Source: a virus. From it: 64,000 bases of DNA. Below the pieces are notes generated by a model that worked only from the letters and a program-made list of their open reading frames with translations, made no database searches and was not told the origin of the DNA. Within the stretch, counting starts at the first letter, position 1, and each line of letters opens with the position of its first letter. Below are positions 17,849 to 50,485 of the stretch, piece by piece. The stretch lies in the IMG/VR virus record IMGVR_UViG_3300045988_097776; one strand, written 5' to 3'. Both the position numbers and the translations under genes were made by a program.

Positions 17849-17866
17849 TCATTAAAAGTAATACTT

Positions 17867-19603
17867 CTATCTACTTATAATTTCATAATCTGTAATAATA
17901 ATTTGTGGTGTCACACTACCGAAGTATCTATTTACTTCTGGTTTACCAATCAAATTTATACTCACGCAACCTAATTCGCTAGATAAATCTTCTAGCTCCT
18001 CTTCGCTTGATTTAAACTTGATGCAAGTAACTCCATTTGGTAATTGAATCTTCAAAGTAGGATTCTTGTCTCGTGACATAAGACTAATCATGTCATTTGT
18101 TACTGCAACATTTTCTACCGCAATTAACGGTTCGTCGATATTCTATCCCCAAAGATACTTAGAATTACCTAGTTCTAATATATCTTTAGAATTAATATCT
18201 GACATAGAGTAAATAAAATCTACCTTATAGCTTGGTGAAAATTCTATATCTTTTAATTGATTGTCTGACCATATAATAAAATCTTCAAAATCTTTTTCAT
18301 AAATGCCAAAGCCAAAAGCATTTGCGTGCCCCTCAGCTAAAAAGACTAAATTTGAATCTCTTACAAATTGTCTAAAATCATTTAATTTAGACTTTTCGTA
18401 TCCTCTAGCTGATCCCTCCCAAGCATCTTGTTCATTGTTTACAGTCTTTGATAAGAGAATAACGGGGCGCTTATACTTACTCATTAATTCATTAGCAATT
18501 AAACCAGTAATACCTCTATCAACCTACATATCTTCTAGTTTAATTACTAAAAGTTTATGCTATAATAGATTTTTTTCTTGAATAATATTTTCTATTTGTT
18601 CAACTTCGGCATCTCTAGTTCTAGTCTAACGATTCTTAACATTAGTGCAAACTCTTAATGCTTGCTCTAATCTAGTTTCCTCTTGCCCTTTACATCCTCG
18701 TTTAGTAGAAGGAATAAGATCATATGCTTTCCATTCAAGCATACTTTCAAATAAAATCTACTTTTCATCTTGAGTACCCATACGAGTAATGGCATTAACA
18801 AGAGGAACAATATAAAACGCTACTCCAATAGGAGATAAATCTCCTCTGCCTAACTAGTAAGCATTTTTATCAGCCATACCTTTAATAAAAGGATTGCGGA
18901 GACTTGACCTCTGTAGCCCCTATTGAATAAGATAATGAGTTTCAAAATCTCTAATATCCATCATATCTCCTACAAGACCGGTGGCTACAATATCAAGGTA
19001 ATTGTCCGCATAGGCAGTTCCGCAAATACTATCCATATACTAACACAATTTATAAACTACTCCTACACCAGATAACGATTTTGTTGGATAATCGCATAAC
19101 TGATTATTAACAACACAGGCGTATTCAGATATTTTATCAGCTAAGTGATGGTCTATAACTAATACATCAATTCCGCGATTAGCCAATTCTTCATGCTCTT
19201 GATAGTCGTTAGAGCTTGAATCCGGTGCAATAACAAGAGAAATATTATCGGGGATTAATTCTGGTTTTATTCCATGAATTTTACCAGAATGGAAGTTATA
19301 AACAAACTTGTTAATTGCAGAGGGAAACTGCGCATGAAGATAATTTAGCAATAATGCAGAAGAGGTGTAACCATCGCAGTCGCTATCTACCTAGACATAG
19401 ATATAAGAATCATCTTTTAAAATGTGCTTAATAATTAGCTTAGCAGCGCTTTCAATATTATTAAGAAGTAAGGGAGATAAATTATCTTTTTCTGATACTG
19501 TTAAATAATGCTATATATCACCATATTTAATACCTCTATTAACTAATACCTACTCTAAAGCACTATAATCCTAATTTCTTGGGTTAATTAATGAATATTC
19601 CAA
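17867..19603 (-). CDS. DHH/DHHA1 phosphoesterase (RecJ-like ssDNA exonuclease family), about 12 in-frame TAGs
   Basis: ORFs 17867..18091, 18143..18484 and 19040..19351 share one frame. Read-through gives DSDCDGYTSSALL, VLVIDHH and a DHHA1-like AEGHANAFGFGI. Probable TTG start at 19601-19603 after AGGAGAG. Confidence 0.6.
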
Positions 19604-19606
19604 TCT

Positions 19607-27413: not shown

Positions 27414-28324
27414 TAAGCTCCTCCTTTAGTTCCATTAAGACCTAATTCTTTAGTCTTATAGAACTCAATCCAATAGGTTTCTCTCTCGTTTAGTTTGTCT
27501 CTGGTTACTTCTTCTAAGACTTCAAACACGAAATTATGAACCCCAGATTTCTGCATAGCAGAGTATAACTTATTAGTTACCTTTCCATAGGTTAAAGCAG
27601 ATTTAATATGCTATCTAAATCGTTCTTTTATATCAACCGATTGTCCAATATAGGACTTGCCTGTAGTTAAATCAGTTATTCTATAGATACCGCAATATTT
27701 AACTGCCTTGGGAAACAAATGGGCCATTAAAATATCATAAGCTGGCTTATAATATACTTCCCATATTAGTTTATCTATACTTTCTTTCTTTACAAATCTT
27801 GGTTGTAATTCGCGCAATAACGTAATATCATTAATATCTATTTCATCAAGAGCAAGACGATAATAATCTTGATTAGAGTCAATTTCTTCCTATCTCTATT
27901 TGGCCTAAATATAGGAAAGCTACTTAGCCTATAAATCAGCTAATTTCCCGGCTTCAATAGAAATTTTCTTTAGCAAATCTTGATTTTTAGCATCAAAAGT
28001 CAAAGAAAGTTCCTATTCTTTTTCTTTGTAGGATTTTACAAGTGCGGAGACGCGTGCCCAATAGGCTTCATCAGCTTGTTTCTAAGCACTTTCCCGCATT
28101 TCTTCCTAAGATTTTAATAAAGAAGAAAGAATATCGTTCTCAAATGTTATATTATTTTTTATGTTAGATAACACTTCTCTATTATGTGCTATTTCTTTTT
28201 CTATTTCAGCGTTTTTTCTTTGATTATCTGTGTTAATCTAAACTACTTCAAGGGTTTGCTTTTTGAGATAATAGATATAAATTATTAACCCGATTATAGC
28301 TATTAATAATAATCCTATAATCAT
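27413..28324 (-). CDS. membrane-anchored coiled-coil protein with C-terminal GIY-YIG nuclease domain (about 10 in-frame TAGs)
   Basis: One frame from ATG 28322-28324: MIIGLLLIAIIGLIIYIYY, a coiled coil, then KYCGIYRITDLTTGKSYIGQSVDIKERFRQH...ETYWIEFYK. Stop TAA 27413-27415. Confidence 0.5.
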
Positions 28325-28334
28325 AATTAAAAAA

Positions 28335-28360
28335 TCGGGAAGAGTTAAAACTCTTCCCGA
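28335..28360 (-). terminator. rho-independent terminator
   Basis: TCGGGAAGAGTT aaaa CTCTTCCCGA, with an A-run on plus (T-run on minus). Confidence 0.6.
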
Positions 28361-28366
28361 TAGACA

Positions 28367-35532: not shown

Positions 35533-36408
35533 TTAAAGTCCTAGCTTTTCCGCCAATCTTCTAATCATAGTTACTGTTTCTAATCTAGTACAGAATTTGT
35601 TTGGCATCATTCTTCCAGCGCTGTCGCCGGCCATAATTCCATTTGTCTTAGCCCATTCGAGATTATCGGAACCCCATGTCTCTTTTTCATTAGCTTTATT
35701 GGTTAGCCAAGTATTCATAAGCTCAGCGAATTTTTCATCAGTCATATCTTCATCATCCTCCTAAATATTTGTCATTAGGTTATAAACGTCTGTTCTTGCT
35801 GTTTCCATGCTTTTTCCAAATTTTGGAAACCAATGGTTTACATCTGCATGGTTAGAACCTAATCCTAGTTTATGACTATCAGCATGACATAAAATGGTTG
35901 GAACAGTGATACCATTTAAAGTAGTCGTTCCTAATGGATTTATGTTATACATCTTACATAAATAGGCAGTAATCTAACAAGCTTCTTCATAAATCTTATT
36001 AAAATAGTCTGCATTATTTAAACCATCTTCGCAAATTTCAAACTAAATCCATCCATTATTACAAGAGCCTTTAGTTCCAGAACCACATCCCCAAGGACGA
36101 TAATTCCATGGCATTGTCTATATTGTTGTTACTGTTCCATCTGCTAGCTTGCCAATCCAGCAATTTAGCCCAGCTTGAATAGATACATGATTCCAGTCAT
36201 TTTTACTTGTATTCTTTCCTATTTTACTTATTAAAGTATTATAGTTGGGATCATTATCGCTAGGTTGAACATATCTTTTTAAATTAGGATTATTCGCGCC
36301 TGTACTATGCCATAAAATTCCTTTAACTTGCATAGTGCGTGTCTATTTATAGCAAGTGCTATTAGTCATCATGCATTGAAGTGGTTTATTGCTATCACTA
36401 TATTTCAT
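35533..36408 (-). CDS. endolysin: N-acetylmuramoyl-L-alanine amidase (Amidase_2/PGRP fold) with C-terminal SLH-like domain (4 in-frame TAGs)
   Basis: ORFs 35533..35745, 35761..35952 and 36118..36333 share one frame. Contains GILWHSTGANNP and TILCHADSH...SNHAD. SLH-like C-terminus WAKTNGIMAGDSAGRMMPNKFCTRLETVTMIRRL. RBS GGAGG and ATG at 36406-36408. Confidence 0.65.
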
Positions 36409-36939
36409 TTTATTACCTCCTTCAATTATATTTGAAATATTAGCAAATTTATTATAATACTATTGACCATAACTTGTTCTCTTTTGTTGCATATAAATAC
36501 TCTAATCCGCAGGTTTTTCAAACTAAATCAATACTGCCGTAGATGCTACTTCAACAGAAACGGCAGAAATTAAAATATTAACTAAAGAAGAAAAACTTGT
36601 AACTAACTCCTAATATAAAAAATCTAATTGGGTGTTTAAATCTCCAATAGATCTTCCACGATTTTGACAGAACTAAAGTAGATTTTGTTTTCTGCTCCAG
36701 AATGTCCATTGAGCTAGGCCATAGCCGGCTCCGTCTTTTACAAAGTTTTTATACCTTCCATCATCAACTGCGGAGGTATATCCTGCGTCGGTCATTTTTA
36801 ATTTTTTTTCATAGGTGTTCTATAAGTTAATAGAATTAAGACCACTTTCGGCATAAAGATTACCCATTAAACCGGCAATTCCGCAATCACTAAAACCTTT
36901 GCCTTTAAAATATTTCCAAATAATTTGAGCATTAGTCAT
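36409..36939 (-). CDS. Lyz2-type lysozyme-like domain, in the same frame as the endolysin with no TAA/TGA between (possible three-domain fusion)
   Basis: From ATG 36937-36939: CGIAGLMGNLYAESGLNSINLQNTYEKK...GYGLAQWTFWSRKQNLLQF. Confidence 0.4.
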
Positions 36940-36941
36940 TT

Positions 36942-37796
36942 TTATTTTTTTGTAATGAAAGAGCTATATCCAGCAGATTTTAATTTATCTTTTAGTCTTT
37001 CTGCATTTAATTTCACAGAGAAAGCACCTAATTGAACTTTATAAAAAATTCCTACTTTCTTGACATACCCGCTAAATCCTTTCTCTTCCAATTCCTTTAA
37101 CATATTCTCTGCATTGGTTTTAGATAGAAATGCTCCTACTTGAACTCTGTAAAGAACTACCTCTTGTTCTTTCTTAAAATATACACACATTACATTATCA
37201 ACTGATCTTGCATAAATTTGAGAAGTTTTTCTTTTCCCATCTATTAGTAATCTAGTAGATCCGCCTCCATCTAAATTAATAGCATATTCTACTTTCAATT
37301 CAAGAAAAATTTGCTATAGGGCAGCATAAACAAGACCTGGAGAATCTACGGTTACAATATAATAATTATTTTTATTCCATCCAATACAAGTCCTGCGGGC
37401 TTTATAATCTAATTCTTTTCCATCTGTTATAACTACTTTTTTGCTATCTACAATTAATGCAGGATAAGCTGCGATAAAATCTCTAGCGGTTTCATAATCT
37501 TTTAATGTTGTATATATAAGTGTTTTATTGCCGCTAATTGCAACTCCATGACGAAAATCAGACTAAATAACAGTTCCTTCGTCTTTATAACTAAAGCAGG
37601 TGTTGCCATTATTCATGGCAAAGAAACCTCCATTAGTAATAATATCTGGTTTAGTAGCCTGTCTTTTATAATAAGCATCTGGAGTTTCCGTCGGTTGATT
37701 GCATAAGGCAAAGTCAATTTTTTCAATGTCTGTGAAGGGAATTGTTACAATTTGAACATAAGAATAGAGACTATGTTTTTTGATACTATATCCCAT
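36942..37796 (-). CDS. phosphodiester-glycosidase-like (DUF2233/NAGPA) domain protein with two C-terminal SPOR peptidoglycan-binding repeats
   Basis: ORFs 37563..37796 and 36942..37298 share one frame, joined through TAGs. Contains ITNGGFF and AINLDGGGST, and two YRVQVGAF..NAE repeats. Confidence 0.5.
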
Positions 37797-39997: not shown

Positions 39998-40027
39998 TAT
40001 TGGTTAGAGGTCTGATAAATTAATTAT
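39998..40027 (-). terminator. rho-independent terminator
   Basis: AGACCTCTAACC atat TGGTTAGAGGTCT, preceded on plus by an A8 run (a T-run on the minus strand). Confidence 0.65.
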
Positions 40028-40757
40028 TGTTTGGATGTATTATGAAGGTACTCGTTTCTAATAGCAAATCTTTAAGTTCTATATCTTGATAATGCGTATA
40101 TGGAATGCGAATTATTGGGATGTTATTATCGAAGCAATAGTTATTCTTTTCAGTATCTCGAATTTGTTGACTTTCTTTTGTATGAATTTCATTTCCCCAT
40201 TTGCTATCCTAGAAATGCTATTTTCCATCATATTCTATAACATATTTATCCTATATAAAGAAGTCATATCGGAATAATGTACCATAAAAAATTTTTTCTT
40301 TAACAAAAGGAATTTTAGCATCTCGTAGTATTTCTGCAATCTTTTGCTCACCTAGAGATTTTATACATCCACAGCTTTTTGTATTTTCTTGTTGTAAAGA
40401 ATTACCAGACACAATAATGGTATTTCCACAATCGCATTTGCACTTCCAATAACTTTTTGTTGATCCGTTTGGATTTTTCTTAGTGCCATTAAATTCTATC
40501 ACTGTTAATAATCCAAACTTCTATCCAACAAGATTTTTTAAATTATCATGTCCAGTTTTCTTTGCCGCTTCTTTTTGTAAGCATCCACAGCTCTTTTTAT
40601 GGCCAGATTTAAGGTCTGCGCTAGACGCATAAGTTTCATTTCCACAAGAGCATTTACATCTCCAAATAACTCCACCTCTATGATCTCGCTGCTTTGTTTC
40701 TTCCAAGACGGTTAATTGATTAAATTGCTAACCAACTAAATTTATTTTTTTACCCAA
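40020..40757 (-). CDS. putative homing endonuclease: two zinc-ribbon repeats plus C-terminal Vsr/DUF559-like PD-(D/E)xK domain (6 in-frame TAGs)
   Basis: ORFs 40521..40706 and 40251..40502 are joined by TAG. Repeats NLVGQxF..LTV..W(R/K)CKCxCGN..SCGC. C-terminus DFFIQDKYVIEYDGKQHF. TTG start after AGAGGTGA. Stop TAA 40020-40022. Confidence 0.5.
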
Positions 40758-40803
40758 TTCAATCACCTCTAATATTAGTAAATGTTAGAGTAGATAAATT
40801 AAA

Positions 40804-41358
40804 TCAATTTGTAAAATTTTTTATATCATTGATAATGTTGTCTAGTAAAACTGGATAGCTATTATGGGCATCAACTTCACAATGATAAATAATTCCTTTG
40901 TCCATATCAACAAAAGGATTAGTAGTATGAGTATGTCCGCAAAGATTTATAATTTTATTTTTTAGAGGTTTATTTAAATCATCAAGATTACCAGTTAAAG
41001 TGGGGAAATGAGACATATAGAAGTGATATTTCTTGTATTTAAGAGCAATAGCCCAAGCAGTTTCCATCACATTAGGAAGCTTGGCATACATTTTCTTGCG
41101 GCTATCCGTACAGTGGTTTCCAAAAGCAATGTGGAGTTTTCCATTCATAGAGGAAATAAACTCCTTATTTCTCTCAAGACCGTCTGCTCCACCGAGGCAG
41201 AGGTCCCCAAGAACATATACATCATCTTCTGGAGTGACAATAGAGTTATGCCTCTCGATAAGAGCAACATTCATCTCTTCAACAGAGTTGAATCCACGAG
41301 ATTTATAGACAAATTCACGGTCATGCGAGAAGTGCCAATCCGAGGTTACGAAAATCAT
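40804..41358 (-). CDS. calcineurin-like metallophosphoesterase
   Basis: Contains DWHFSHD, GDLCLGG and GNHC. Confidence 0.6.
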   Translation of the reverse strand: MIFVTSDWHFSHDREFVYKSRGFNSVEEMNVALIERHNSIVTPEDDVYVLGDLCLGGADGLERNKEFISSMNGKLHIAFGNHCTDSRKKMYAKLPNVMETAWAIALKYKKYHFYMSHFPTLTGNLDDLNKPLKNKIINLCGHTHTTNPFVDMDKGIIYHCEVDAHNSYPVLLDNIINDIKNFTN

Positions 41359-41888
41359 TTATCTCTCTCCTCCATTCCATGATGATTAATTCTTACTTCT
41401 TTAAATCCGTACTTATAAAGTTTAAATTCTGCGGGAGTGGGAGATCTATAGTTTCTAGCCATCTTCCTAATTGCGGACTCTGGGACTTGAGAAAATCCTT
41501 CTCTCAAGCTATTGCGAGCGATACAGGTATCAATCCCGCAATCGCAAACTTCGAAGACAAGTCTTGTTTTTCCGTCCGGCCGCAGTCTACCCAATAGCTT
41601 TGCTCTTGATCCTTGGGAAATATGAGTTGCGTCAACAAAGACGTAATCAATTCCGATTTCGAGACATTCGTTAATCTGACGGACAAATTCTTCGAATACA
41701 TCATTCTCTTTTCCGAAGTAACTTCCATCACCAACGAAAGATTTTCTTATCTCGTCACGGGAGATAATAGTAGTATGAAAACCATCCATTTCAAGCAACT
41801 CAGCTTCTTTATGCGCCCAAGTAGATTTTCCACTACCGGGGATACCGACCATAACTTTTACTTCAATAGTCATACTGCTTTCCTCCAT
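41355..41888 (-). CDS. P-loop kinase resembling the polynucleotide kinase (Pnk) kinase domain
   Basis: VMVGIPGSGKSTWA. Confidence 0.55.
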   Translation of the reverse strand: MEESSMTIEVKVMVGIPGSGKSTWAHKEAELLEMDGFHTTIISRDEIRKSFVGDGSYFGKENDVFEEFVRQINECLEIGIDYVFVDATHISQGSRAKLLGRLRPDGKTRLVFEVCDCGIDTCIARNSLREGFSQVPESAIRKMARNYRSPTPAEFKLYKYGFKEVRINHHGMEERDK

Positions 41889-41949
41889 TCATTTAACTTT
41901 CTATAAATATTATAATATATTTTTTATAAAATATCAAAAGATTTTTATT

Positions 41950-42795
41950 TTAAATCTCAACTGGTTGAATTAGTTCTTCAATATAAGTCCTACCTTCATC
42001 TTTGAATAGAGGAATATTAAGGTCAATAAACCAATAGTGTTTAAAATGAATTGAGCCATCTTCTCTTTCCGTTTCTTCGCAGTCTTTTATACAACAAGAA
42101 CCTCTCTTCAAATAGGTCGGTAGACTATTCCAATCTATCCCCTTTTTGGAAATAAGCATCTCTAAAATTTCACTACTGCACTTACCCTGAAGTTCACTAT
42201 GAGAAAAATTTGCTTGACCAACCATTTGAATAGAATTGCGAATGGCATCTAACTGTCGCCAGTAAATGAGATTTGTTACCTCTTCTTTTGGGATATTAAA
42301 AACACGTGCATCAAACATAGCACCTTTTGCGCTTGCCATCCGTAAAGTTTTCATATATTCTTGATGTTTCTGTCGGATTTCTACACTTTGCGGAGTTAGA
42401 GAACACTTCCAATCAACTTCGTATGCTTCAATCGCTCGATGAAAAGCTTTATTAAAAGCCATTGTCGCCATAGATGCTGCAACAGAGCACATCTTTTGAA
42501 CTTCGTAGTCAAACCACGCTTCACTATTTAATTTCTTGTAATCAACAAGAATTAGAGTTATTTCATCACTTTGTGTATATCCAAGAACACATCCTTGAAT
42601 ATTTCTGCACAAATACTCTGTAGTTTCTTGCATAGCTTCAACTAACACTTCGTCAAATGGTTTTTTAAATCCTTTAGTGAAGGTATGAAATGCTTTTCCA
42701 TCAATTCTAATTGCTACTGGAGTTCTGCGCATGAGGTGAGTTTTAGGTACCTGTTCATAAAACTCCTTCATACGAGTACCAAGTTGGTCATTCAT
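41950..42795 (-). CDS. Thg1-like protein (tRNA-His guanylyltransferase family; 3'-5' nucleotide addition / tRNA 5'-end repair)
   Basis: AIRIDGKAFHTFTKGFKKPFD resembles the Thg1 VVRLDGRNFHRF core. Likely starts at the internal ATG 42793-42795 after GGAGGA. Confidence 0.55.
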   Translation of the reverse strand: MNDQLGTRMKEFYEQVPKTHLMRRTPVAIRIDGKAFHTFTKGFKKPFDEVLVEAMQETTEYLCRNIQGCVLGYTQSDEITLILVDYKKLNSEAWFDYEVQKMCSVAASMATMAFNKAFHRAIEAYEVDWKCSLTPQSVEIRQKHQEYMKTLRMASAKGAMFDARVFNIPKEEVTNLIYWRQLDAIRNSIQMVGQANFSHSELQGKCSSEILEMLISKKGIDWNSLPTYLKRGSCCIKDCEETEREDGSIHFKHYWFIDLNIPLFKDEGRTYIEELIQPVEI

Positions 42796-43522
42796 ACTGT
42801 TTATCCTCCATATCAACCATAAAAATATGCTCGTCAAAGGTATCGAGATTTAAGAGAACGGTTTGTCCAGTAAAGAAACTGCCACAATCAATATTTACCT
42901 TATGGTCATTGCAGTACCAAAAAGCACCCTCAACATAAGAGTCTTCTCTCGCTCCAAAGAAATTTTTTAGACTTCCTCTATAGCCTCTAATCATACCGGG
43001 GATAGGAGTATGTCCATGAACACAGATAGTATTATTTTCATAGTAAGTATCCCAAATATGTTCTCTATCCCAGATTAAATCTCTTGTATTTGGATTAGAA
43101 CCTGCTGTAAGCCCTGCATGACAAAGAGCTATTTTAACATCGTCTTTATTGCAGTATTCCATATAAGTAGGTAACTTACTTAAATAATTACACCAATCAG
43201 GGTTCGCACCATCACTTATCCAACCTTCAAAGGTGTCTTTCCCTCCATTAAAACAAAGCAAAGCATAATCTCTGTCGAAACATTCATACTTCGCATATTC
43301 TCTCATTGCATTGACAAGCATATCTTCGTGATTACCCTTGATGTAGATAAATTGCGGATCTGCGGCAACTGCTTTAATGGTTTCCCAAGGATCAGGTCCC
43401 CGATCGCCGCAATCGCCCAGGCAATAAACTTTATCTTCTGGTTTTAAAAATTTCTTTACCTCTTGATAAAGACATAACATACCATGAAGATCACTAATAG
43501 CGTATACGCTCACTTTAATCAC
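42788..43522 (-). CDS. metallophosphatase (calcineurin-like Ser/Thr or polynucleotide phosphatase)
   Basis: ISDLHG, GDCGDRG and GNHE. Confidence 0.6.
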   Translation of the reverse strand: MIKVSVYAISDLHGMLCLYQEVKKFLKPEDKVYCLGDCGDRGPDPWETIKAVAADPQFIYIKGNHEDMLVNAMREYAKYECFDRDYALLCFNGGKDTFEGWISDGANPDWCNYLSKLPTYMEYCNKDDVKIALCHAGLTAGSNPNTRDLIWDREHIWDTYYENNTICVHGHTPIPGMIRGYRGSLKNFFGAREDSYVEGAFWYCNDHKVNIDCGSFFTGQTVLLNLDTFDEHIFMVDMEDKQYE

Positions 43523-43555: not shown

Positions 43556-43586
43556 AAAATAAAGAGAGCGTAAAGCTCTCTTTATT
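43556..43586 (-). terminator. rho-independent terminator
   Basis: AAATAAAGAGAGC gtaa GCTCTCTTTATTT. Confidence 0.6.
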
Positions 43587-44308
43587 TAAAAGAAGGGGCA
43601 GATTGGCATTTCCTCTGTTTTATGTAGGTTTCTCTTGTGTCTCTGCTCAATATTTTTATATACTTCATACGGAGGAGTAATACGATATAGCAAAAAGTTA
43701 TCAAGAGTTTTATAAGAAAAACCTAGATTCTCTTCATCTGAGAGTCCAGTTAATCCATCTTCTGGAACTTTTTCTATAAATTTCTCCGGTAGACCAAGTT
43801 CTAAACCAATCTCTTTAACTTCTGTTACTGTGTAATTGTGCAGAATTGAAAAATCTCCCGCGGAATCACCAAATTTGGTTGAATAACCAACATAATTTTC
43901 ACTTCTATTACAAGTGTTTGCAACTCTACCATGTCGAGCAGCCGCGATGGCATAAAGAATATTCATTCTTTCTCTTGCTGGAACGTTACTTACAACTTGA
44001 GGAAGATTACGAATATCAGAGGGTAGGGAGAAAAAAGTTGCTTTGCAAGCCTCTCCAATGTTGATATTATAATGTTCTTTAATGCCTAGATACTCAATAA
44101 CTTCATTTGAAATATCAATGTCTGATTGATACCCTTGTGGCATTTGAACTGCAATTACATTTTCTGGCCCAATAGCTTTACAAAGCAGTGCGGCAGCGAC
44201 AGTAGAATCTTTTCCTCCAGAAATACCAATAACAGCTTTGCAGTCCGGGCCGTTGTCGATAAAATATTTTTTAATCCAGTTAATGATTCTTTGAACTCTT
44301 ATTGTCAT
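43586..44308 (-). CDS. nadE: NH3-dependent NAD+ synthetase (PP-loop ATPase)
   Basis: Contains IGISGGKDS. Confidence 0.7.
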   Translation of the reverse strand: MTIRVQRIINWIKKYFIDNGPDCKAVIGISGGKDSTVAAALLCKAIGPENVIAVQMPQGYQSDIDISNEVIEYLGIKEHYNINIGEACKATFFSLPSDIRNLPQVVSNVPARERMNILYAIAAARHGRVANTCNRSENYVGYSTKFGDSAGDFSILHNYTVTEVKEIGLELGLPEKFIEKVPEDGLTGLSDEENLGFSYKTLDNFLLYRITPPYEVYKNIEQRHKRNLHKTEEMPICPFF

Positions 44309-44313
44309 AAGAT

Positions 44314-45903
44314 TTACTCTCCCATCAGTCGATTCTTAATTGTATAAAAATCTTCCTCGTTTTCGCGTACAAAAACACCATCTTTTACTTTGAATTTCAT
44401 TACATTATCCTTATATTCGATGGCTTCTTTAAGAGTAAGATTTTCAACAAGCCTATATTGGCCCTCTGAGTCTTTAACAACCGCTACGCATCCACGAGGA
44501 GATTTTTTCCCAGGATCGGTTTTTGGCATCTTGTAGATTTGGATTTCATCTTCTCCAAGAATACAATCGGTAGCCTTAATTGCATAGCCTCTAGTGTCAC
44601 GAGTTACATATTGATAAGTATATGCGCCAATTCCAAAACAGATATTTGATACTGAAATAGAATTATTGACACACCAATTACATATTTTTTCAGTGATCTC
44701 GGGAGTGATCGCATCGCCATAAATAACACGAATACAAGAGGGAAGCTCAAAATAACCCTTTCTATTAAGGTTGCCGCCAAAAGTATCAAAGAGACTGACA
44801 AGAGTTCCTTTACCCTCCGGGGAGTCAGGATCAACAGCAAAACTTGTGTCCCCGCAAATGATTTTTACTGGATCTCCGCTATCGGGGCGGATGGAAAGGC
44901 ATCCATCCCGCTGCTCGATAATGTCTCTCAATGCAGGAACAATTTTAGATACTACACCCCAATAATCATATGTATCTGCTACATAAGTCATTGTCCCAGT
45001 AGGCTGAATATTGATAAGAAGATGGCGCAGGAAGAGCATCTCAGCAATAAGATTAACTTCCCAATTTTCAGAGAGGCAAGTATTGAGTAGAGCTTGCTCC
45101 TCGGCTTCTAGCTCACCATTGAACATCTGCGCTCTTTTCCATGCTACACCCTGTTCAACAACAGAGTGCTCCAGAGATGGAGTTCCCATTAGAGGAGGAT
45201 TATTCTCTAAATCTGCTCCATAATATTTCTCCAAAAGAAGATTAGAACCAATGGTCGCAGTCCTATCAAAAGACAAAGCGTGCGCGGCGCCAGAGATATA
45301 GCCCGCTTCAAGTGAAGTGTGACCGCGGAGAGAGAAGTCACCGCACATATGAGGGAGAGCAGACATATCGTCACAGGTCATCTTAACATAAGGCTCGATT
45401 AGCTTACGTCGATAGAAGGCTGTCGTGGCAGAAGTAGAAGGAAGCCAGTTATTTGCACTCCACTGATCTTCAATAAACTGCGGAAGCCATGCAAATTCAG
45501 GATCAGTAGAAAAGATAACATGATCTGGAATACCGATAGGAAGAAGTGTACCTTCGGGAACTCCCATAATTGAAATGGGAAGATAGCCAAGCTCATAAAG
45601 TTTCCTAAACTTGCTGAAATCTGCATAGCCAGGATGGAAAGTATCCTTGATTACCCTGTTCCACTCGCTTTCAAGCAGATCAATGGGCTGATTAAAAAAT
45701 TCTGCCTGCCAGTAATTAAGCAGTCGCTGGATGGTATATTGATGGCCAAACACCATAGTTTTGGCGCAGTCTTTATGATATTTATTGCTGCGAGCAGTCC
45801 AAGTAGAATACACCATCTTTGCGTCGGCAGGCTGCATTTTAACCGCATGACCAATCTTATAATAGTCTGCCGCAAACATAGGTGCTACATCAAAGAAACT
45901 CAT
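44314..45903 (-). CDS. nicotinamide/nicotinate phosphoribosyltransferase (NAMPT/NadV family)
   Basis: 529 aa with ADYYKIGH near the N-terminus (compare DSYKVTH in NAMPT). Confidence 0.7.
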   Translation of the reverse strand: MSFFDVAPMFAADYYKIGHAVKMQPADAKMVYSTWTARSNKYHKDCAKTMVFGHQYTIQRLLNYWQAEFFNQPIDLLESEWNRVIKDTFHPGYADFSKFRKLYELGYLPISIMGVPEGTLLPIGIPDHVIFSTDPEFAWLPQFIEDQWSANNWLPSTSATTAFYRRKLIEPYVKMTCDDMSALPHMCGDFSLRGHTSLEAGYISGAAHALSFDRTATIGSNLLLEKYYGADLENNPPLMGTPSLEHSVVEQGVAWKRAQMFNGELEAEEQALLNTCLSENWEVNLIAEMLFLRHLLINIQPTGTMTYVADTYDYWGVVSKIVPALRDIIEQRDGCLSIRPDSGDPVKIICGDTSFAVDPDSPEGKGTLVSLFDTFGGNLNRKGYFELPSCIRVIYGDAITPEITEKICNWCVNNSISVSNICFGIGAYTYQYVTRDTRGYAIKATDCILGEDEIQIYKMPKTDPGKKSPRGCVAVVKDSEGQYRLVENLTLKEAIEYKDNVMKFKVKDGVFVRENEEDFYTIKNRLMGE

Positions 45904-45924
45904 AAAATCTTCCTTTCCTTATTT

Positions 45925-45950
45925 CTTTATTATATTATAACATATATTTT
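45925..45950 (-). promoter_or_regulatory. conserved promoter motif variant (extended -10, TGTTATAAT)
   Basis: Minus-strand ATATGTTATAATATAATAAAG. Confidence 0.45.
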
Positions 45951-45957
45951 TATAAAA

Positions 45958-45985
45958 ATAAAAAGCTCTCATAAGAGAGCTTTTT
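45958..45985 (-). terminator. rho-independent terminator
   Basis: AAAAAGCTCTC ataa GAGAGCTTTTT. Confidence 0.65.
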
Positions 45986-45986
45986 A

Positions 45987-46355
45987 TCAATTTTGAAGCA
46001 AGCTGAATAATGCTTCAATTCCTACGTATTCTGGCGCAATAATGCAAGTAATAATTGGAACACAAACTGTAATAATGACTGAAAGTATGGGCACGAATGT
46101 AAGAATGTGCAGGTGCCATTTTTTAAAATCGACTTCAATCATTAGATATAGTATAAACCATATAATACTAGAAATAATAGCACCTATAAAAACCCCAACA
46201 AAAATGTTAAATCCTAAATCTTTAACGGTTACGTACCAGCCATATTTAGCCAACCACATTGGAGCATTTTCCATAATAGTTTGAGTGGTTACTCCAAAAA
46301 AGTTAGCAAGAGACTGTAAAATAGAAGCCAACGTCTGCTCTAAAGTCAAACTCAT
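45987..46355 (-). CDS. polytopic membrane protein
   Basis: Several hydrophobic helices. Confidence 0.5.
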   Translation of the reverse strand: MSLTLEQTLASILQSLANFFGVTTQTIMENAPMWLAKYGWYVTVKDLGFNIFVGVFIGAIISSIIWFILYLMIEVDFKKWHLHILTFVPILSVIITVCVPIITCIIAPEYVGIEALFSLLQN

Positions 46356-46801
46356 TTTAGAATCTCCCCAACAACAGTGCTTACAATTTTCATATCAGCT
46401 TTACCTTTGAGTGCCGCAGAAACATACTTCATAATCGCACCTCGGTTTGCTTTAAGGAGATCTATACCTGCGGCAGCTGCGATTTCTCTTACTCTTGTTT
46501 CAATCTCTGTTTTATCTGTAAGCAGCTGTGGAGCACACATTTTTACGATTTTCATATCCTCTTGATATTGATGCAACTTCTCAGAATAGTTAGCGGGGCA
46601 GGTATCAATCATTTCTTGCACAGTTTTTTGATACTTAATAAGAGTTTCATCAATTAACTGCTCTGTTAGTTCCACTCTTCCCTTCGGAGTAATTGTTGCT
46701 TTCTGACACGAATCAATCATGTCAGAAAGCACTCTCTTTGTATTTACGTCTCCATTTTTAAGAGCTGCAATTTTTAGTGCTTGAAGCTTTTCAATAGTCA
46801 T
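46352..46801 (-). CDS. GatB/YqeY-domain protein
   Basis: ALKNGDVNTKRVLSDMIDSCQKA matches the YqeY pattern. Confidence 0.45.
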   Translation of the reverse strand: MTIEKLQALKIAALKNGDVNTKRVLSDMIDSCQKATITPKGRVELTEQLIDETLIKYQKTVQEMIDTCPANYSEKLHQYQEDMKIVKMCAPQLLTDKTEIETRVREIAAAAGIDLLKANRGAIMKYVSAALKGKADMKIVSTVVGEILK

Positions 46802-47610
46802 CGAACAATTTCTACCTTTCCTCTAGTATCCCACTCAGGCTTAAAGATGCTATCAGTGGTAAAGATTTTCTTTACAATATCCTGATTATACATATCACCT
46901 TCAACCATAGTATGTTCTGCATGAGTGACGTAAAGATAAATATTTTTTGCTCCTGCTTCTTTTAGAGCGTTTGCCGCGTGATAGAAAGTTCCTCCCCGAG
47001 AGCAAATATCGTCTACAATTAGAACACCCTTATCTTTAACCAACTCACCATTCATTAGTTGTAGACCAAGAATTTTTCCAGTAGACCAATCCCTCTTTTT
47101 AATTCCAAAGGCGTATGGAAGATTAATTGCTGGAGTGGAATATCTCTTCATAGCTCCCTCGTCCGGGAAAAATAGAACGGGAGTTTCTTTTTCATAATGC
47201 TCAAAAAGTTTGATAGCCTCTTTGATTTCTCCAATAGGAGTAAGATCAATTACCCTATCGAGCAGAGCTAATGCTACATTAGAATGAGCATCTCTTACAA
47301 TGACTTTATCGAAGTGAAGACCATTGATTACTTGACAGAAATATTTAAGGGTAAACACATCTTCAAGTTCTTGCACTCTATCCATTCTTGCATGAGGAAT
47401 ATATGGCATATCGAGCCTCAAGGGACAATCTTTAAAGTGTCCCTTTACGCAAATTAGAGTGAACAGTTCTGCATCGTTCTCATACTCCCAAAGAACGGTA
47501 TCGTAATCAAAATAATTGGGCGGCATATTAATATGCAGCGTTCCATCGGGAAAATGATTTTGCTCAATTACATCTGTCCAATGACTGCGCGTGTTAATCA
47601 GACTAATCAT
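46798..47610 (-). CDS. prs: ribose-phosphate pyrophosphokinase (PRPP synthetase)-like
   Basis: PRPP-binding VLIVDDICSRGGT. Confidence 0.65.
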   Translation of the reverse strand: MISLINTRSHWTDVIEQNHFPDGTLHINMPPNYFDYDTVLWEYENDAELFTLICVKGHFKDCPLRLDMPYIPHARMDRVQELEDVFTLKYFCQVINGLHFDKVIVRDAHSNVALALLDRVIDLTPIGEIKEAIKLFEHYEKETPVLFFPDEGAMKRYSTPAINLPYAFGIKKRDWSTGKILGLQLMNGELVKDKGVLIVDDICSRGGTFYHAANALKEAGAKNIYLYVTHAEHTMVEGDMYNQDIVKKIFTTDSIFKPEWDTRGKVEIVR

Positions 47611-47613
47611 TTC

Positions 47614-48153
47614 TTAATCCTCCACATCAATCTGTTGAGCTTTGAAAATAGTTAGCGCTGCCTCATGCGATTCTGGAGTTACTCCTGCGCACGCACTAGA
47701 ATGAACGATAATTCTAGTATTTGGCAACGCTGCACGAAGCATAACCGCGTTAGCCATAACGCAGATATCGGTACAAAATCCGCAGATATGAATTTCTACT
47801 TCCTCTGGATTCTTCATCTTTAGAGAATCATATACCTCATTAACCATATCGGTACTGCCAAAGGTGTCTTTTTCATAATAATTAAACTTGTTATTCAACG
47901 CAATCACGACTCTGGAATCCATACACCAGCCCACGCTTGCCTTAATACAATGTTTAACAGGAAGTTTCTTTCCTTCCAAAGTATCGAAGTAATCGTCATC
48001 ATGGGTATCCATGGTACAAATAATTTCTTCCCAACAGAATCGTTTAATTAGATCAACAATATTAGGAACTGCGGCATCCGCCTCCTTTGTACCTAGCGCC
48101 CTAGTGATGAAATCATTTTGAGCATCAACAATTATAAGTATCTTTCTATACAT
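47614..48153 (-). CDS. isochorismatase-family hydrolase, nicotinamidase (PncA)-like
   Basis: ILIIVDAQNDF, a Cys in ICGFCTDIC, and 179 aa. Confidence 0.65.
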   Translation of the reverse strand: MYRKILIIVDAQNDFITRALGTKEADAAVPNIVDLIKRFCWEEIICTMDTHDDDYFDTLEGKKLPVKHCIKASVGWCMDSRVVIALNNKFNYYEKDTFGSTDMVNEVYDSLKMKNPEEVEIHICGFCTDICVMANAVMLRAALPNTRIIVHSSACAGVTPESHEAALTIFKAQQIDVED

Positions 48154-48236: not shown

Positions 48237-49100
48237 TCAAGATTTAACGAGAAATTTTTCATCCGTTAGCAGCTCTAAGGTTATTGTATCTCTATATTCG
48301 TATGGAATACGATATAAAGGAATATTGTGAGATAGGCAATATTTATTTTTTTCCTAGTCTCTTTGCATTAAAGCGTCTACTTTTTCTTTAGTATAATATC
48401 CACTTACTTGACCTTCATGCTATGGACCATCGAACTCTACTACATACTTATTGTCTATGTAAAAATCAAATTTACATTTTTGATTTGGATAATCCTGTGG
48501 CGTCCATTGAGAAATAAAGGGTATATTTGCTTCTTGCAAGATCCGTTTTATTCTAGCTTCTCCTTTTGAGATTATACAACCACAAGACTAGGTATTCCCA
48601 GAAGTTAAATTTTGTCTTTTTACAATCGTGATATTTCCACAGTCGCACTAGCATTTACAACACCAAGTATCATTTTCTTTAAATTGTTCTAACACAATTA
48701 AATTTCCATATCTGCTTCCTATAATAGGATTACGAATCTAATTTTTAAATAAATGTCCACAAGAAAGAGATTTTCCACTCTTTAATGATGGGGCATATAC
48801 TTCTCTTTTTACTCCACAAGAACATTCACATAGCCAGTAGCTCTCTTTCTCTGCTTTTGATAATACTGTCCATTCCCCAAATTTCTGTCCTGTTAAATCA
48901 ACAAATTTTTTAGATGGCTCTCTCTTTTTACATCCGCATGAGGTAGTATGCCCACTTCTTAAATTTTCTGCGCGGACGGGGATTATATTACCACAGTCAC
49001 ACTAACATTCCCAAATAGTTCTACGACCTTGATTTGGTAATCTACGTAAAGCAGTTAATTTTCCAAACTTTTGACCAGTTAAATCTAATGCTTTTGGCAT
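48237..49100 (-). CDS. putative homing endonuclease: three zinc-ribbon repeats plus Vsr/DUF559-like domain (about 9 in-frame TAGs); paralogue of 40020..40757
   Basis: From ATG 49098-49100: LTGQKFGKLTALRRL..WECQCDCGN..SCGC (three repeats), then KFDFYIDNKYVVEFDGPQHEG. Stop TGA 48237-48239. No standard-code ORF was called. Confidence 0.5.
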
Positions 49101-49194
49101 AAAAATCATCTCCTTTTATTGTCTACATTATATAAGAAATAAAAGGAGATGATTTAATCATTTTACCCTCTTTTTTTTTAAATTTGTGGGTAAA

Positions 49195-49989
49195 TTACAT
49201 TTCCGCAAGAATATCTTCAGAAATATTACTAGAATTTACGCTCTCTGTAGCAATCCCAGAAATAACTTTAAATTCAAAGGTTTTTGACTTGAAAGCAGTA
49301 AAGGTGCGCCGATTTACAATTCGGATAACTACTCCTTCCTTAACATGGGTGCGGCCGATCGGATCCGCAAGATCCTCGAAGTATTTATTGATGCGCTCCT
49401 GAAGATCCTCAACAGTAGTAAATGTAAAGTTCTCAATTACAGGAACGCGATTAAAACCATGCCAATCGCACCAGGCAGTGATTTCGTCAGGAGTCCACTC
49501 TCTCTCTCCGTTTTCAGAGGTAATGCGATAGATATACATTTTGCTCTGACCGGGTTCACAGCCATAAGAGAAAATAGACCGTTTACCAAACTGCTTTACA
49601 AAAGCCTTGTCATTGACCTTAGTATTATCACCAATAGGCATAATAGTATTCTCTTCATTGGGCCCATAGTAGCCTACTACTTCGTAAAAAACTTCCATAC
49701 CTAGCTCAAGGTGAGGTTTTAGAGCTTCATGGTGAGGCATACGGAACTGATCGTTTCCATAGTATCCCTGAGAGTTTTCAGTTACTACGCAACGGCGAGT
49801 TCCAAGAACATAAGCCTGCTTAGTACGCTTCTTCATATGGAAAAGGCGACGGAAGAAACCATTAGGAAGCTCTGCATAAGTATTCATAGAACGCTGAGAG
49901 GTGCCATGCATTTTGAGGGTCATGTTCAGTCTATCGCCTTCACGGAACTTATCAAAGTTATATGCAAGCTGCTCAGTATCAGTGTGCAT
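49195..49989 (-). CDS. RNA ligase, Rnl2 family
   Basis: Motif I KMHGTS (compare T4 Rnl2 KIHGTN). Confidence 0.6.
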   Translation of the reverse strand: MHTDTEQLAYNFDKFREGDRLNMTLKMHGTSQRSMNTYAELPNGFFRRLFHMKKRTKQAYVLGTRRCVVTENSQGYYGNDQFRMPHHEALKPHLELGMEVFYEVVGYYGPNEENTIMPIGDNTKVNDKAFVKQFGKRSIFSYGCEPGQSKMYIYRITSENGEREWTPDEITAWCDWHGFNRVPVIENFTFTTVEDLQERINKYFEDLADPIGRTHVKEGVVIRIVNRRTFTAFKSKTFEFKVISGIATESVNSSNISEDILAEM

Positions 49990-50013
49990 AGAGAACTCAG
50001 GATAAGTAATCCC

Positions 50014-50469
50014 CTCAGCTTTGCGTCCTTTGTAAGAAGTTTTTACTCCATAAGTAGAATTGCTCTTTCGCTTAGGAATATACTTACGGCAAAACTCCTT
50101 GTCATTGATAGTAGTTACTTTATCTCCGTCACTCCAATGCTAGTCACCAAACTTTTCATAGACTCGATCAAGAGCAATGACAATACCAGAAGACTGGTTG
50201 CCGCGGAGCTTAATAGCCCGCACATGGCCGTTATTTTCAAGGTATCCACCCTGAACAGATCCATCCTCATTCTTGCGGAAAAGGCAAAACTCATTGCCAA
50301 ACCAACGCTCAATTTCTCCATCGGTGGGCAGATAGAGCACCAGATCTCCGGTCTTCATGTCAGGGCCTACGATTACGCCCTCACTAAAACAATCCGCCAG
50401 ATATAGCCGATCGGAATTCGGATCTTTCCGCACGTTCTGAATCTTAGTCACCAGACCAAAATAAGCCAT
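50014..50469 (-). CDS. hypothetical protein (1 in-frame TAG)
   Basis: ORF 50140..50469 ends at TAG and continues in frame to TGA 50014-50016. Confidence 0.4.
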
Positions 50470-50485
50470 CTTTCATGCCTCCTCA

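Follow-up and report, generated by a model that had tools for sequence, protein, structure and literature searches.

We analyzed a 64,000-nucleotide stretch of viral DNA (IMG/VR record IMGVR_UViG_3300045988_097776; here, the window) in which six genes between positions 43586 and 48153 had been annotated as an NAD+ salvage cluster. With a probability that we put at roughly 55%, sequence comparisons suggest that this cluster rebuilds NAD+ as a NARP1-type operon via deamidated intermediates and has a four-enzyme core: a PncA-type nicotinamidase, a Prs-like protein resembling Adps, a type II phosphoribosyltransferase resembling Namat, and an NadE. In the phages studied by Osterman et al. (Bas63, SPbetaL1, FADO, and ICP1), the "Prs + Nampt" operons of NARP1 make neither phosphoribosyl pyrophosphate (PRPP) nor nicotinamide mononucleotide (NMN): Adps pyrophosphorylates ADP-ribose (ADPR), and Namat joins the resulting pyrophosphate (ADPR-PP) with nicotinamide to give NAD+.

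In the pathway that we propose for the window, PncA would convert the nicotinamide freed by NADases to nicotinate and NH3, and the Adps-like enzyme would convert ADPR and ATP to ADPR-PP and AMP. The transferase would join nicotinate and ADPR-PP directly to give nicotinate adenine dinucleotide (NaAD, or deamido-NAD) and pyrophosphate, and NadE would turn NaAD, ATP, and NH3 into NAD+, possibly reusing the ammonia from the PncA step. The net reaction would thus consume ADPR, nicotinamide, and 2 ATP to yield NAD+, and the NadD/NMNAT step would be dispensable. This four-step scheme is the simplest that uses all four conserved enzymes without a missing step. We infer a counterdefense role for the phage operon, which would restore NAD+ after depletion of the SIR2, TIR, or SEFIR type, like canonical NARP1; the chromosomal operon of Clostridium and Oscillospiraceae would presumably recycle ADPR and nicotinamide.

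The literature that we searched holds no description linking NARP1 to nicotinamidase, PncA, NadE, nicotinate, or NaAD, and the operon looks like an apparently undescribed variant of NARP1. We see about even odds that the conversion of nicotinate and ADPR-PP to NaAD is a transferase reaction undescribed so far, and that the four-step pathway occurs in the chromosomes of Clostridia and in many uncultured gut phages, where it would bypass PncB and NadD.

The transferase has a Namat core and an altered base pocket

The best solved relative of the window transferase is the Namat of SPbetaL1 (9W5X and 9W5W, both identified as Namat in PMC12774641), which scores 329 bits compared to approximately 139 for human NAMPT. 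Against the model NF006629, which has a cutoff of 405, the transferase reaches 356 bits, Namat 594, and phage NAMPT 511. Taking the core residues of SPbetaL1 Namat as reference (D13, Y15, F189, R192, H245, R306, D308, and the TRD motif), we found the catalytic core to be whole in the window protein, as D13, Y15, F190, R193, H246, R339, D341, and T434-R435-D436. The adenine selectivity clamp is also kept, with K41 in the place of R40 of SCL, Y428 and Y432 in the places of F392 and Y396 of SCH, and Y430 between them; at the SCH clamp positions, NAMPTs carry Gly and either Lys or Gln.

The base pocket is altered. Relative to SPbetaL1 Namat, in which the pocket positions read H187, G213, D215, and A242 (here, the H-G-D-A type), the window transferase has G188, R214, A216, and S243. 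[quoted passage not shown] The corresponding residue of human NAMPT, D219, binds the amide, and human NaPRT has Ser at this site, "directing specificity toward nicotinate" (PMC4442680); an entry for D219S records a switch in substrate affinity (PMC4919578). The Asp through which nicotinamide is recognized is absent from the window transferase, which has Ala216 there. Because this nicotinamide-specific Asp is replaced, the pocket points to nicotinate rather than nicotinamide as the predicted base. The initial annotation had made its reading depend on the phosphoribosyltransferase catalytic residues of the 529-aa protein; these are intact, whereas the nicotinamide-specific Asp is replaced.

The Prs-like protein is of the Adps type in its scores and motifs

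In BLASTP comparisons, the Prs-like protein scores 141 bits against SPbetaL1 Adps (39% identity), 118 bits against the FADO protein, 86 bits against the ICP1 protein, and 58 bits against E. coli Prs (23% identity). Its score against TIGR01251, for which the cutoff is 113, is 90.2 bits, compared to 106 for SPbetaL1 Adps, 98 for ICP1 Adps, and 423 for E. coli Prs. Considering all 11 NCBIfam Prs models together, the protein falls under every cutoff, as the characterized Adps proteins do. A search of the Protein Data Bank with the Prs-like protein returned true Prs structures only (best score 67 bits), the ICP1 Adps structures lying outside the entries searched.

We took the ICP1 Adps sequence from the ICP1 genome and aligned it with the window protein. 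Residues F18, R87, H121, D161, K185, D212, and D213, which belong to the key residues named for ICP1 Adps (PMC13586617), are kept in the window protein; F92 is replaced by Gln at a site that is variable among known Adps proteins too. K185 of ICP1 Adps is the catalytic Lys of the beta-hairpin (K162 in SPbetaL1), and the window protein carries the Adps hairpin motif K-x-R-[DN]-x-x-[TS]-G-x-I. It has no counterpart of the C-terminal Prs helices, the alignment stopping before alpha11-alpha12. The Adps-like gene and the transferase gene lie on the same strand with two genes between them, which is within the 10 genes from a Namat homolog that Osterman et al. use as their working criterion for a NARP1 Adps.

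Judged by these features, the Prs-like protein is most likely an Adps-type enzyme and not a bona fide PRPP synthetase. The initial annotation had it supply PRPP to a self-contained pathway, a role made unlikely by the Adps-like scores, the hairpin motif, and the absence of the Prs C-terminal helices. ADPR chemistry rather than PRPP chemistry is supported by the Adps-like features together with the retained adenine clamp of the predicted transferase.

Pocket type follows the neighboring genes

We gathered phage loci in two ways, through the transferase and through PncA. Genes for PncA, the Adps-like enzyme, the transferase, and NadE occur together on one strand in 76 phage loci, in two gene orders, and only these four families are essentially universal (74 to 76 of the 76 loci). 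When phages and bacteria are taken together, three gene orders occur, always on a single strand.

Among 89 aligned sequences of the phage set, 78 adjoin PncA, and all 78 have Ala or Ser at position 215 and Ser at position 242. The other 11 are references, namely, human NAMPT and ten canonical two-gene Namats (SPbetaL1, FADO, and eight IMG/VR loci); all are of the H-G-D-A type, with neither PncA nor NadE nearby. The ICP1 Namat and two phage NAMPTs, which we added later, are H-G-D-A as well. Among the 120 top-ranking relatives of the window transferase in the database, all those alignable by length, down to 41% identity, carry the A-S signature.

Species genomes in GTDB give a similar picture. 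None of 40 H-G-D-A genomes, which include Paenibacillus, Cohnella, Larkinella, and Shewanella, has PncA or NadE near the transferase, only Adps. The variant pocket was found in 42 genomes, with PncA nearby in 35, NadE in 26, and at least one of the two in 40. Many of these belong to Clostridium, Oscillospiraceae, Fusibacter, Sphingobacterium, and Dysgonomonas, and the locus is usually a tight Adps-PncA-transferase-NadE operon; in Sphingobacterium and Dysgonomonas, the variant transferase is accompanied by NadE without PncA. Overall, across approximately 190 phage and bacterial homologs, the variant pocket nearly always lies beside PncA and/or NadE, and the H-G-D-A pocket never does.

Only four of 491 aligned positions (187, 215, 239, and 242) split the variant and canonical sets perfectly. 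The same four are the sole losses in the variant clade among 50 positions that are invariant in the canonical set, and they include two of the seven nicotinamide-pocket residues (hypergeometric p of approximately 0.001). Given these four splitting positions, two of them in the nicotinamide pocket, the divergence between variant and canonical transferases is focused on the base pocket.

PncA, NadE, and the genes found with them

In PncA, Asp10-Lys95-Cys131 and Asp49-His51-His68, which we take to be the catalytic triad and the metal ligands of the family, respectively, are invariant in four divergent phage homologs. The protein has few solved relatives, the best including the Pyrococcus pyrazinamidase/nicotinamidase (1ILW/1IM5), and at 21.6 bits it does not reach the cutoff of 174 for the E. 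coli-type PncA equivalog of NCBIfam. The PncA gene is next to the module at 76 phage loci and in 35 bacterial species. Homologs occur in 7 of 50,697 GenBank phage records, all derived from human gut metagenomes.

NadE has the ATP-pyrophosphatase motif SGGKDS at residues 30 to 35. A short archaeal NadE, that of M. jannaschii, is specific for NaAD (PMC3376133). Neither the NMNAT/NadD HxGH motif nor a Nudix box was found in the six frames of the window, and the HxGH motif was not found within 4 kb of the 76 phage modules; these were motif searches, which divergent enzymes could escape.

A Macro-domain gene (PF01661) lies between the transferase and NadE genes in 27 of the 76 phage loci (L002, L034, L088, L101, and 23 other IMG/VR loci), and its position inside the operon links the module to ADPR chemistry. 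The window has no Macro gene. Other loci, among them those of the phAss-1 group, have a protein of 136 to 139 aa in the place of the Macro protein; one representative (L001:10575-10994) has a DxDxT motif like that of HAD phosphatases and no Pfam match.

The module also occurs in bacterial chromosomes. In C. beijerinckii (L107), it lies downstream of an NrtR-type regulator (NUDIX and WHD_NrtR domains); NrtR responds to ADP-ribose. A copy in an Oscillospiraceae metagenome-assembled genome (MAG; L108/L110) abuts rpmG-secE-nusG-rplK-rplA, and further chromosomal copies were found at L116, L125, and L126. Because there are chromosomal copies beside housekeeping genes, the pathway would not be specific to phages. 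One more copy (L172) is on a contig binned as Nanoarchaeia.

Weighing the proposed pathway

The analysis shows directly which gene families are present, which active-site residues they have, that the four genes are conserved as a set, and that pocket type goes with the neighboring genes. Several points weigh against the pathway built on these findings, first of all that the substrates of every enzyme are assigned from sequence and gene context. An Ala at the 215 site alone is no proof of a gained use of nicotinate, and the human NAMPT variant D219A is listed as a loss-of-activity mutant (PMC4919578). Namat accepts PRPP too, in vitro (Osterman et al. preprint), and the second and third aromatic residues of the clamp vary in the largest phage subclade (F and C at 392 and 396). 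The deamidated route would cost the phage an extra ATP, for a reason that is not obvious. NadE ties between its two best solved relatives at approximately 108 bits each, 2E18 of P. horikoshii and 3FIU, which is presumably the Francisella enzyme. The Francisella NadE homolog is an NMN synthetase with marginal NAD synthetase activity (PMC3376133), and the window NadE may thus act on either NaAD or nicotinate mononucleotide (NaMN).

The phylogeny of the transferase also calls for caution. In a neighbor-joining tree built without the signature columns, the variants form roughly one clade; the strict split between variant and canonical sequences appears in 28 of 100 bootstraps, and the best split joins 69 variants with 3 canonical sequences. 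Because the variants form roughly one clade, the covariation of pocket and neighbors reflects one or few evolutionary events. We considered repeated convergent change as a reading of this covariation and rejected it on the same tree. The argument from covariation rests on persistence over deep divergence and across three gene orders, and on changes focused on the pocket.

The chemistry could be as we propose and the purpose different, with metabolic genes captured from Clostridia raising NAD+ for replication generally. The presence of the same operon in bacterial chromosomes, beside rplK-rplA or under NrtR, fits such a purpose, as does the ability of NARP2 to raise NAD+ even without a defense system (Osterman et al.). 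We nevertheless consider it unlikely, if quite conceivable, given that ADPR and nicotinamide are abundant mainly upon NAD+ cleavage and that the Macro genes inside the operon have a counterpart in the anti-aRES extension of NARP1 (bioRxiv 10.64898/2026.01.28.702374). A general purpose is also compatible with counterdefense, and the two are not mutually exclusive.

A second possibility is a Preiss-Handler booster based on PRPP, in which PncA would provide nicotinate, the Prs-like protein PRPP, and the transferase nicotinate mononucleotide, with host NadD and phage NadE completing the route. A nicotinate-type pocket, PncA, and NadE would fit this equally well, Namat-family enzymes keep the PRPP activity mentioned above, and the NCBIfam model nearest to the transferase carries the name "nicotinate phosphoribosyltransferase." The Prs-like protein, however, is Adps-like and not Prs-like in its scores, motifs, and length; the transferase keeps the adenine clamp; the Macro genes inside the modules point to ADPR; and NadD was not found at any of the 76 phage loci by the HxGH motif search. 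We therefore regard a PRPP-based route as rather improbable.

Somewhat more doubtful still is a canonical NARP1 with two helpers, in which Adps and Namat would rebuild NAD+ directly while PncA and NadE boost host nicotinate salvage in parallel. The homology to Adps and Namat, the intact catalytic core, and the proven function of NARP1 in several phages (Osterman et al.) would all suit it. Yet the nicotinamide-binding Asp is missing in every PncA-linked homolog and present in all unlinked ones, its replacement by Ala is the very change that drops Namat activity 8-fold (PMC12774641), a coexpressed nicotinamidase would compete for the substrate of Namat, and canonical NARP1 yields no substrate for NadE.

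The mechanism of the initial annotation, in which Prs provides the PRPP that NAMPT needs to turn nicotinamide into NMN, as a self-contained amidated salvage, agrees with the Pfam and PHROG names of both proteins and was the initial assumption of Osterman et al. for NARP1 until they disproved it, but it is very improbable here: its NMN product needs an NMNAT, which the motif searches of the window and around the modules did not find, the equivalent of Asp219 is gone, the transferase scores under the NAMPT-family cutoff and the Prs-like protein under the Prs cutoffs, and NadE and the nicotinamidase would have no use. The more general idea, that the cluster is an NAD+-rebuilding and probably counterdefense module, is backed by its homology to the experimentally proven NARP1.

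Layout of the operon

The initial annotation had listed an NAMPT-family transferase, an NadE, a Prs-like protein, a nicotinamidase, and a YqeY-like protein, and all six open reading frames (ORFs) and their profile matches agree with it, at the same coordinates (Table 1). The ORFs are tightly packed as a single unit, the junctions from PncA to NadE being +3, -4, -4, +83, and +5 nt. Five of the six, all but PncA, were called with the same lengths by an independent gene caller in identical contigs from other sequencing runs. The assignments to gene families are far beyond chance.

Table 1. Coordinates of the NAD+ operon, its terminator-like hairpin, and two zinc-ribbon-like ORFs in the window
Feature	Position	Strand	Length (aa)	Details
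Zinc-ribbon-like ORF	48240-49115	-		6 in-frame TAGs; visible only with TAG readthrough
PncA-type nicotinamidase	47614-48153	-	179	First gene; PF00857, E = 5e-20, 72.7 bits
Adps-like PRPS-fold enzyme	46798-47610	-	270	phrog_619, E = 3.6e-66
YqeY/GatB-tail-like protein	46352-46801	-	149	PF09424, E = 2.6e-10, 41 bits (cutoff 27); phrog_1460
Small hydrophobic membrane-like protein	45987-46355	-	122	No family match
Namat-like type II phosphoribosyltransferase	44314-45903	-	529	PF04095, E = 3.6e-24; phrog_448, E = 8.9e-136
Single-domain NH3-type NadE	43586-44308	-	240	Last gene; PF02540, E = 4.8e-46; TIGR00552, 152.4 bits (cutoff 63.65)
Terminator-like hairpin	43557-43587	-		Begins at the NadE stop codon; 13-bp stem (4 GC pairs) and T-rich tail
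Zinc-ribbon-like ORF	40023-40784	-		5 in-frame TAGs; visible only with TAG readthrough

The hairpin at the end of NadE is a consensus match only, with 4 such sites found in the region compared to 3.7 expected. A promoter scan gave 17 matches compared to 22 expected in shuffled sequence, and we claim no promoter.

Two of the six genes are lineage-specific passengers that lie outside the conserved module. The YqeY gene, which is translationally coupled to both of its neighbors by 4-nt overlaps, is confined to the closest relatives of the window (L003 to L007, overlapping copies of two of those contigs at L024 and L025, and L109). The 122-aa protein has 66 to 68% identity by tblastn in the closest relatives, L003 to L007, and is also called in the identical contigs; profile searches of Pfam, PHROG, and NCBIfam gave no match for it. 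The relatives that have both YqeY and the 122-aa protein share 77 to 78% transferase identity with the window.

Around the transferase gene (44001-46000), the G+C content is 0.40, the highest in its surroundings (approximately 0.34 to 0.36), and within the minus-strand block (4 to 64 kb) the AT skew is positive only here and at 58001-60000. This anomaly in G+C content and AT skew may reflect horizontal acquisition.

The phage and the flanking genes

The relatives of the region are all uncultured, and a megablast search of the region against GenBank phages gave no match. The nearest named relative is phAss-1, a member of a code-15 clade with a predicted host in Clostridia; its transferase has 65% identity to that of the window, and its nicotinamidase, Prs, and NAMPT are annotated consecutively. 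A 148,971-bp contig (L109, CALWOP010000177.1) binned in an "uncultured Oscillospiraceae" MAG has a transferase with 76% identity and the same gene order, PncA-Adps-YqeY-transferase-NadE-phosphoesterases. This contig probably represents a phage from the same group as the window, and its binning is either a hint to the host or an artefact.

The window phage, a gut phage, is clearly TAG-recoded. A suppressor tRNA gene of anticodon CTA lies on the minus strand at 60031-60105 (tRNA-Pyl according to ARAGORN; Rfam tRNA, 61.6 bits), and when TAG is read as sense, the coverage of minus-strand ORFs rises from 44.2 to 55.3 kb. In-frame TAGs are found, for example, at 17855-19606 (13 TAGs), 35536-36984 (12 TAGs), and 27416-28366 (10 TAGs). 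The six module genes contain zero TAGs, which means that they would be translatable before suppression sets in, as would suit an early counterdefense.

Because a TAG-readthrough ORF lies there, what appears as a 1-kb "intergenic" gap before the start of PncA is coding. This ORF and its counterpart on the other side of the module look related by eye. Each has repeated zinc-ribbon-like "LxGQKFGxLTV...CxCxCGN...SCGC" units and a C-terminal nuclease-like domain, and one of the two gives a weak, subthreshold match to DUF2726. Both look like genes of the homing-endonuclease type, and they bracket the 40.8- to 48.2-kb block that holds the NAD module. An RNA-repair-like set also flanks the module (40804-43522 and 49198-50472, minus strand). 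It comprises two metallophosphoesterases, an AAA_33 kinase (PF13671), a Thg1-like tRNA-His guanylyltransferase (PF04446 and PF14413), and an RNA ligase whose length becomes 424 aa with readthrough of one TAG. In phage FADO, a Thg1-like gene lies approximately 2 kb from the NARP1 operon. The RNA-repair-like flank may be a counterdefense island directed against tRNA or RNA nucleases.

Significance

NARP1 is among the best understood phage escapes from NAD+-depleting immunity (Thoeris, DSR, SIR2-HerA, and SEFIR). If the proposed pathway is correct, a nicotinate-based version would extend NAD biochemistry by a new enzymatic reaction, and it would account for the nicotinamidase and NAD synthetase genes in the genomes of gut phages. 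Annotating Adps plus Namat as antidefense would then merge two chemically distinct pathways, and the operon of Clostridium and Oscillospiraceae would represent an unrecognized way for gut anaerobes to recycle ADP-ribose and nicotinamide. Four purified proteins would be enough to test the prediction.

Comparison with known systems

NARP1, NARP1-AP, NARP2, NARP3, and bacterial NARP1 are already published. The window operon shares with NARP1 a PRPS-like enzyme beside an NAMPT-like transferase, the Adps hairpin with its catalytic Lys, the Namat core and adenine clamp, a phage setting, and, probably, the inputs ADPR and nicotinamide. In contrast to NARP1, its transferase lacks Asp215 (Ala216) and His187 and has Ser in the place of Ala242, a nicotinamidase and an NAD synthetase go along with transferases of this type, the transferase is predicted to yield NaAD instead of NAD+, and two extra genes split the core genes of the window.

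NARP1-AP adds to NARP1 a Macro-domain phosphatase of ADPR-1''-phosphate, Adpp (bioRxiv 10.64898/2026.01.28.702374). The related phage loci with a Macro gene inside the operon would resemble it by domain only; the window itself, without such a gene, does not.

The Adps-Namat pair of Paenibacillus foliorum (pfAdps/pfNamat, PMC12774641) is a published NARP1 of a bacterial chromosome, and the chromosomal modules are similar in this respect. The Paenibacillus loci that we recovered are of the H-G-D-A type, whereas the Clostridium and Oscillospiraceae loci, unmentioned in PMC12774641, combine the variant pocket with PncA and/or NadE.

NARP2 and the NadV-NatV pair of KVP40 (NAMPT plus NMNAT) have a transferase of the same superfamily and likewise rebuild NAD+ in a phage. 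In the window, however, no NMNAT was found, the transferase is nearer to Namat, and the equivalent of Asp219 is absent.

Finally, the predicted route resembles the Preiss-Handler pathway (PncA-PncB-NadD-NadE) in starting with PncA, ending with NadE, and passing through deamidated intermediates. The two differ in that the Adps-like and Namat-like enzymes would replace PncB and NadD, with the ribose-phosphate-adenylate part of the product taken ready-made from ADPR.

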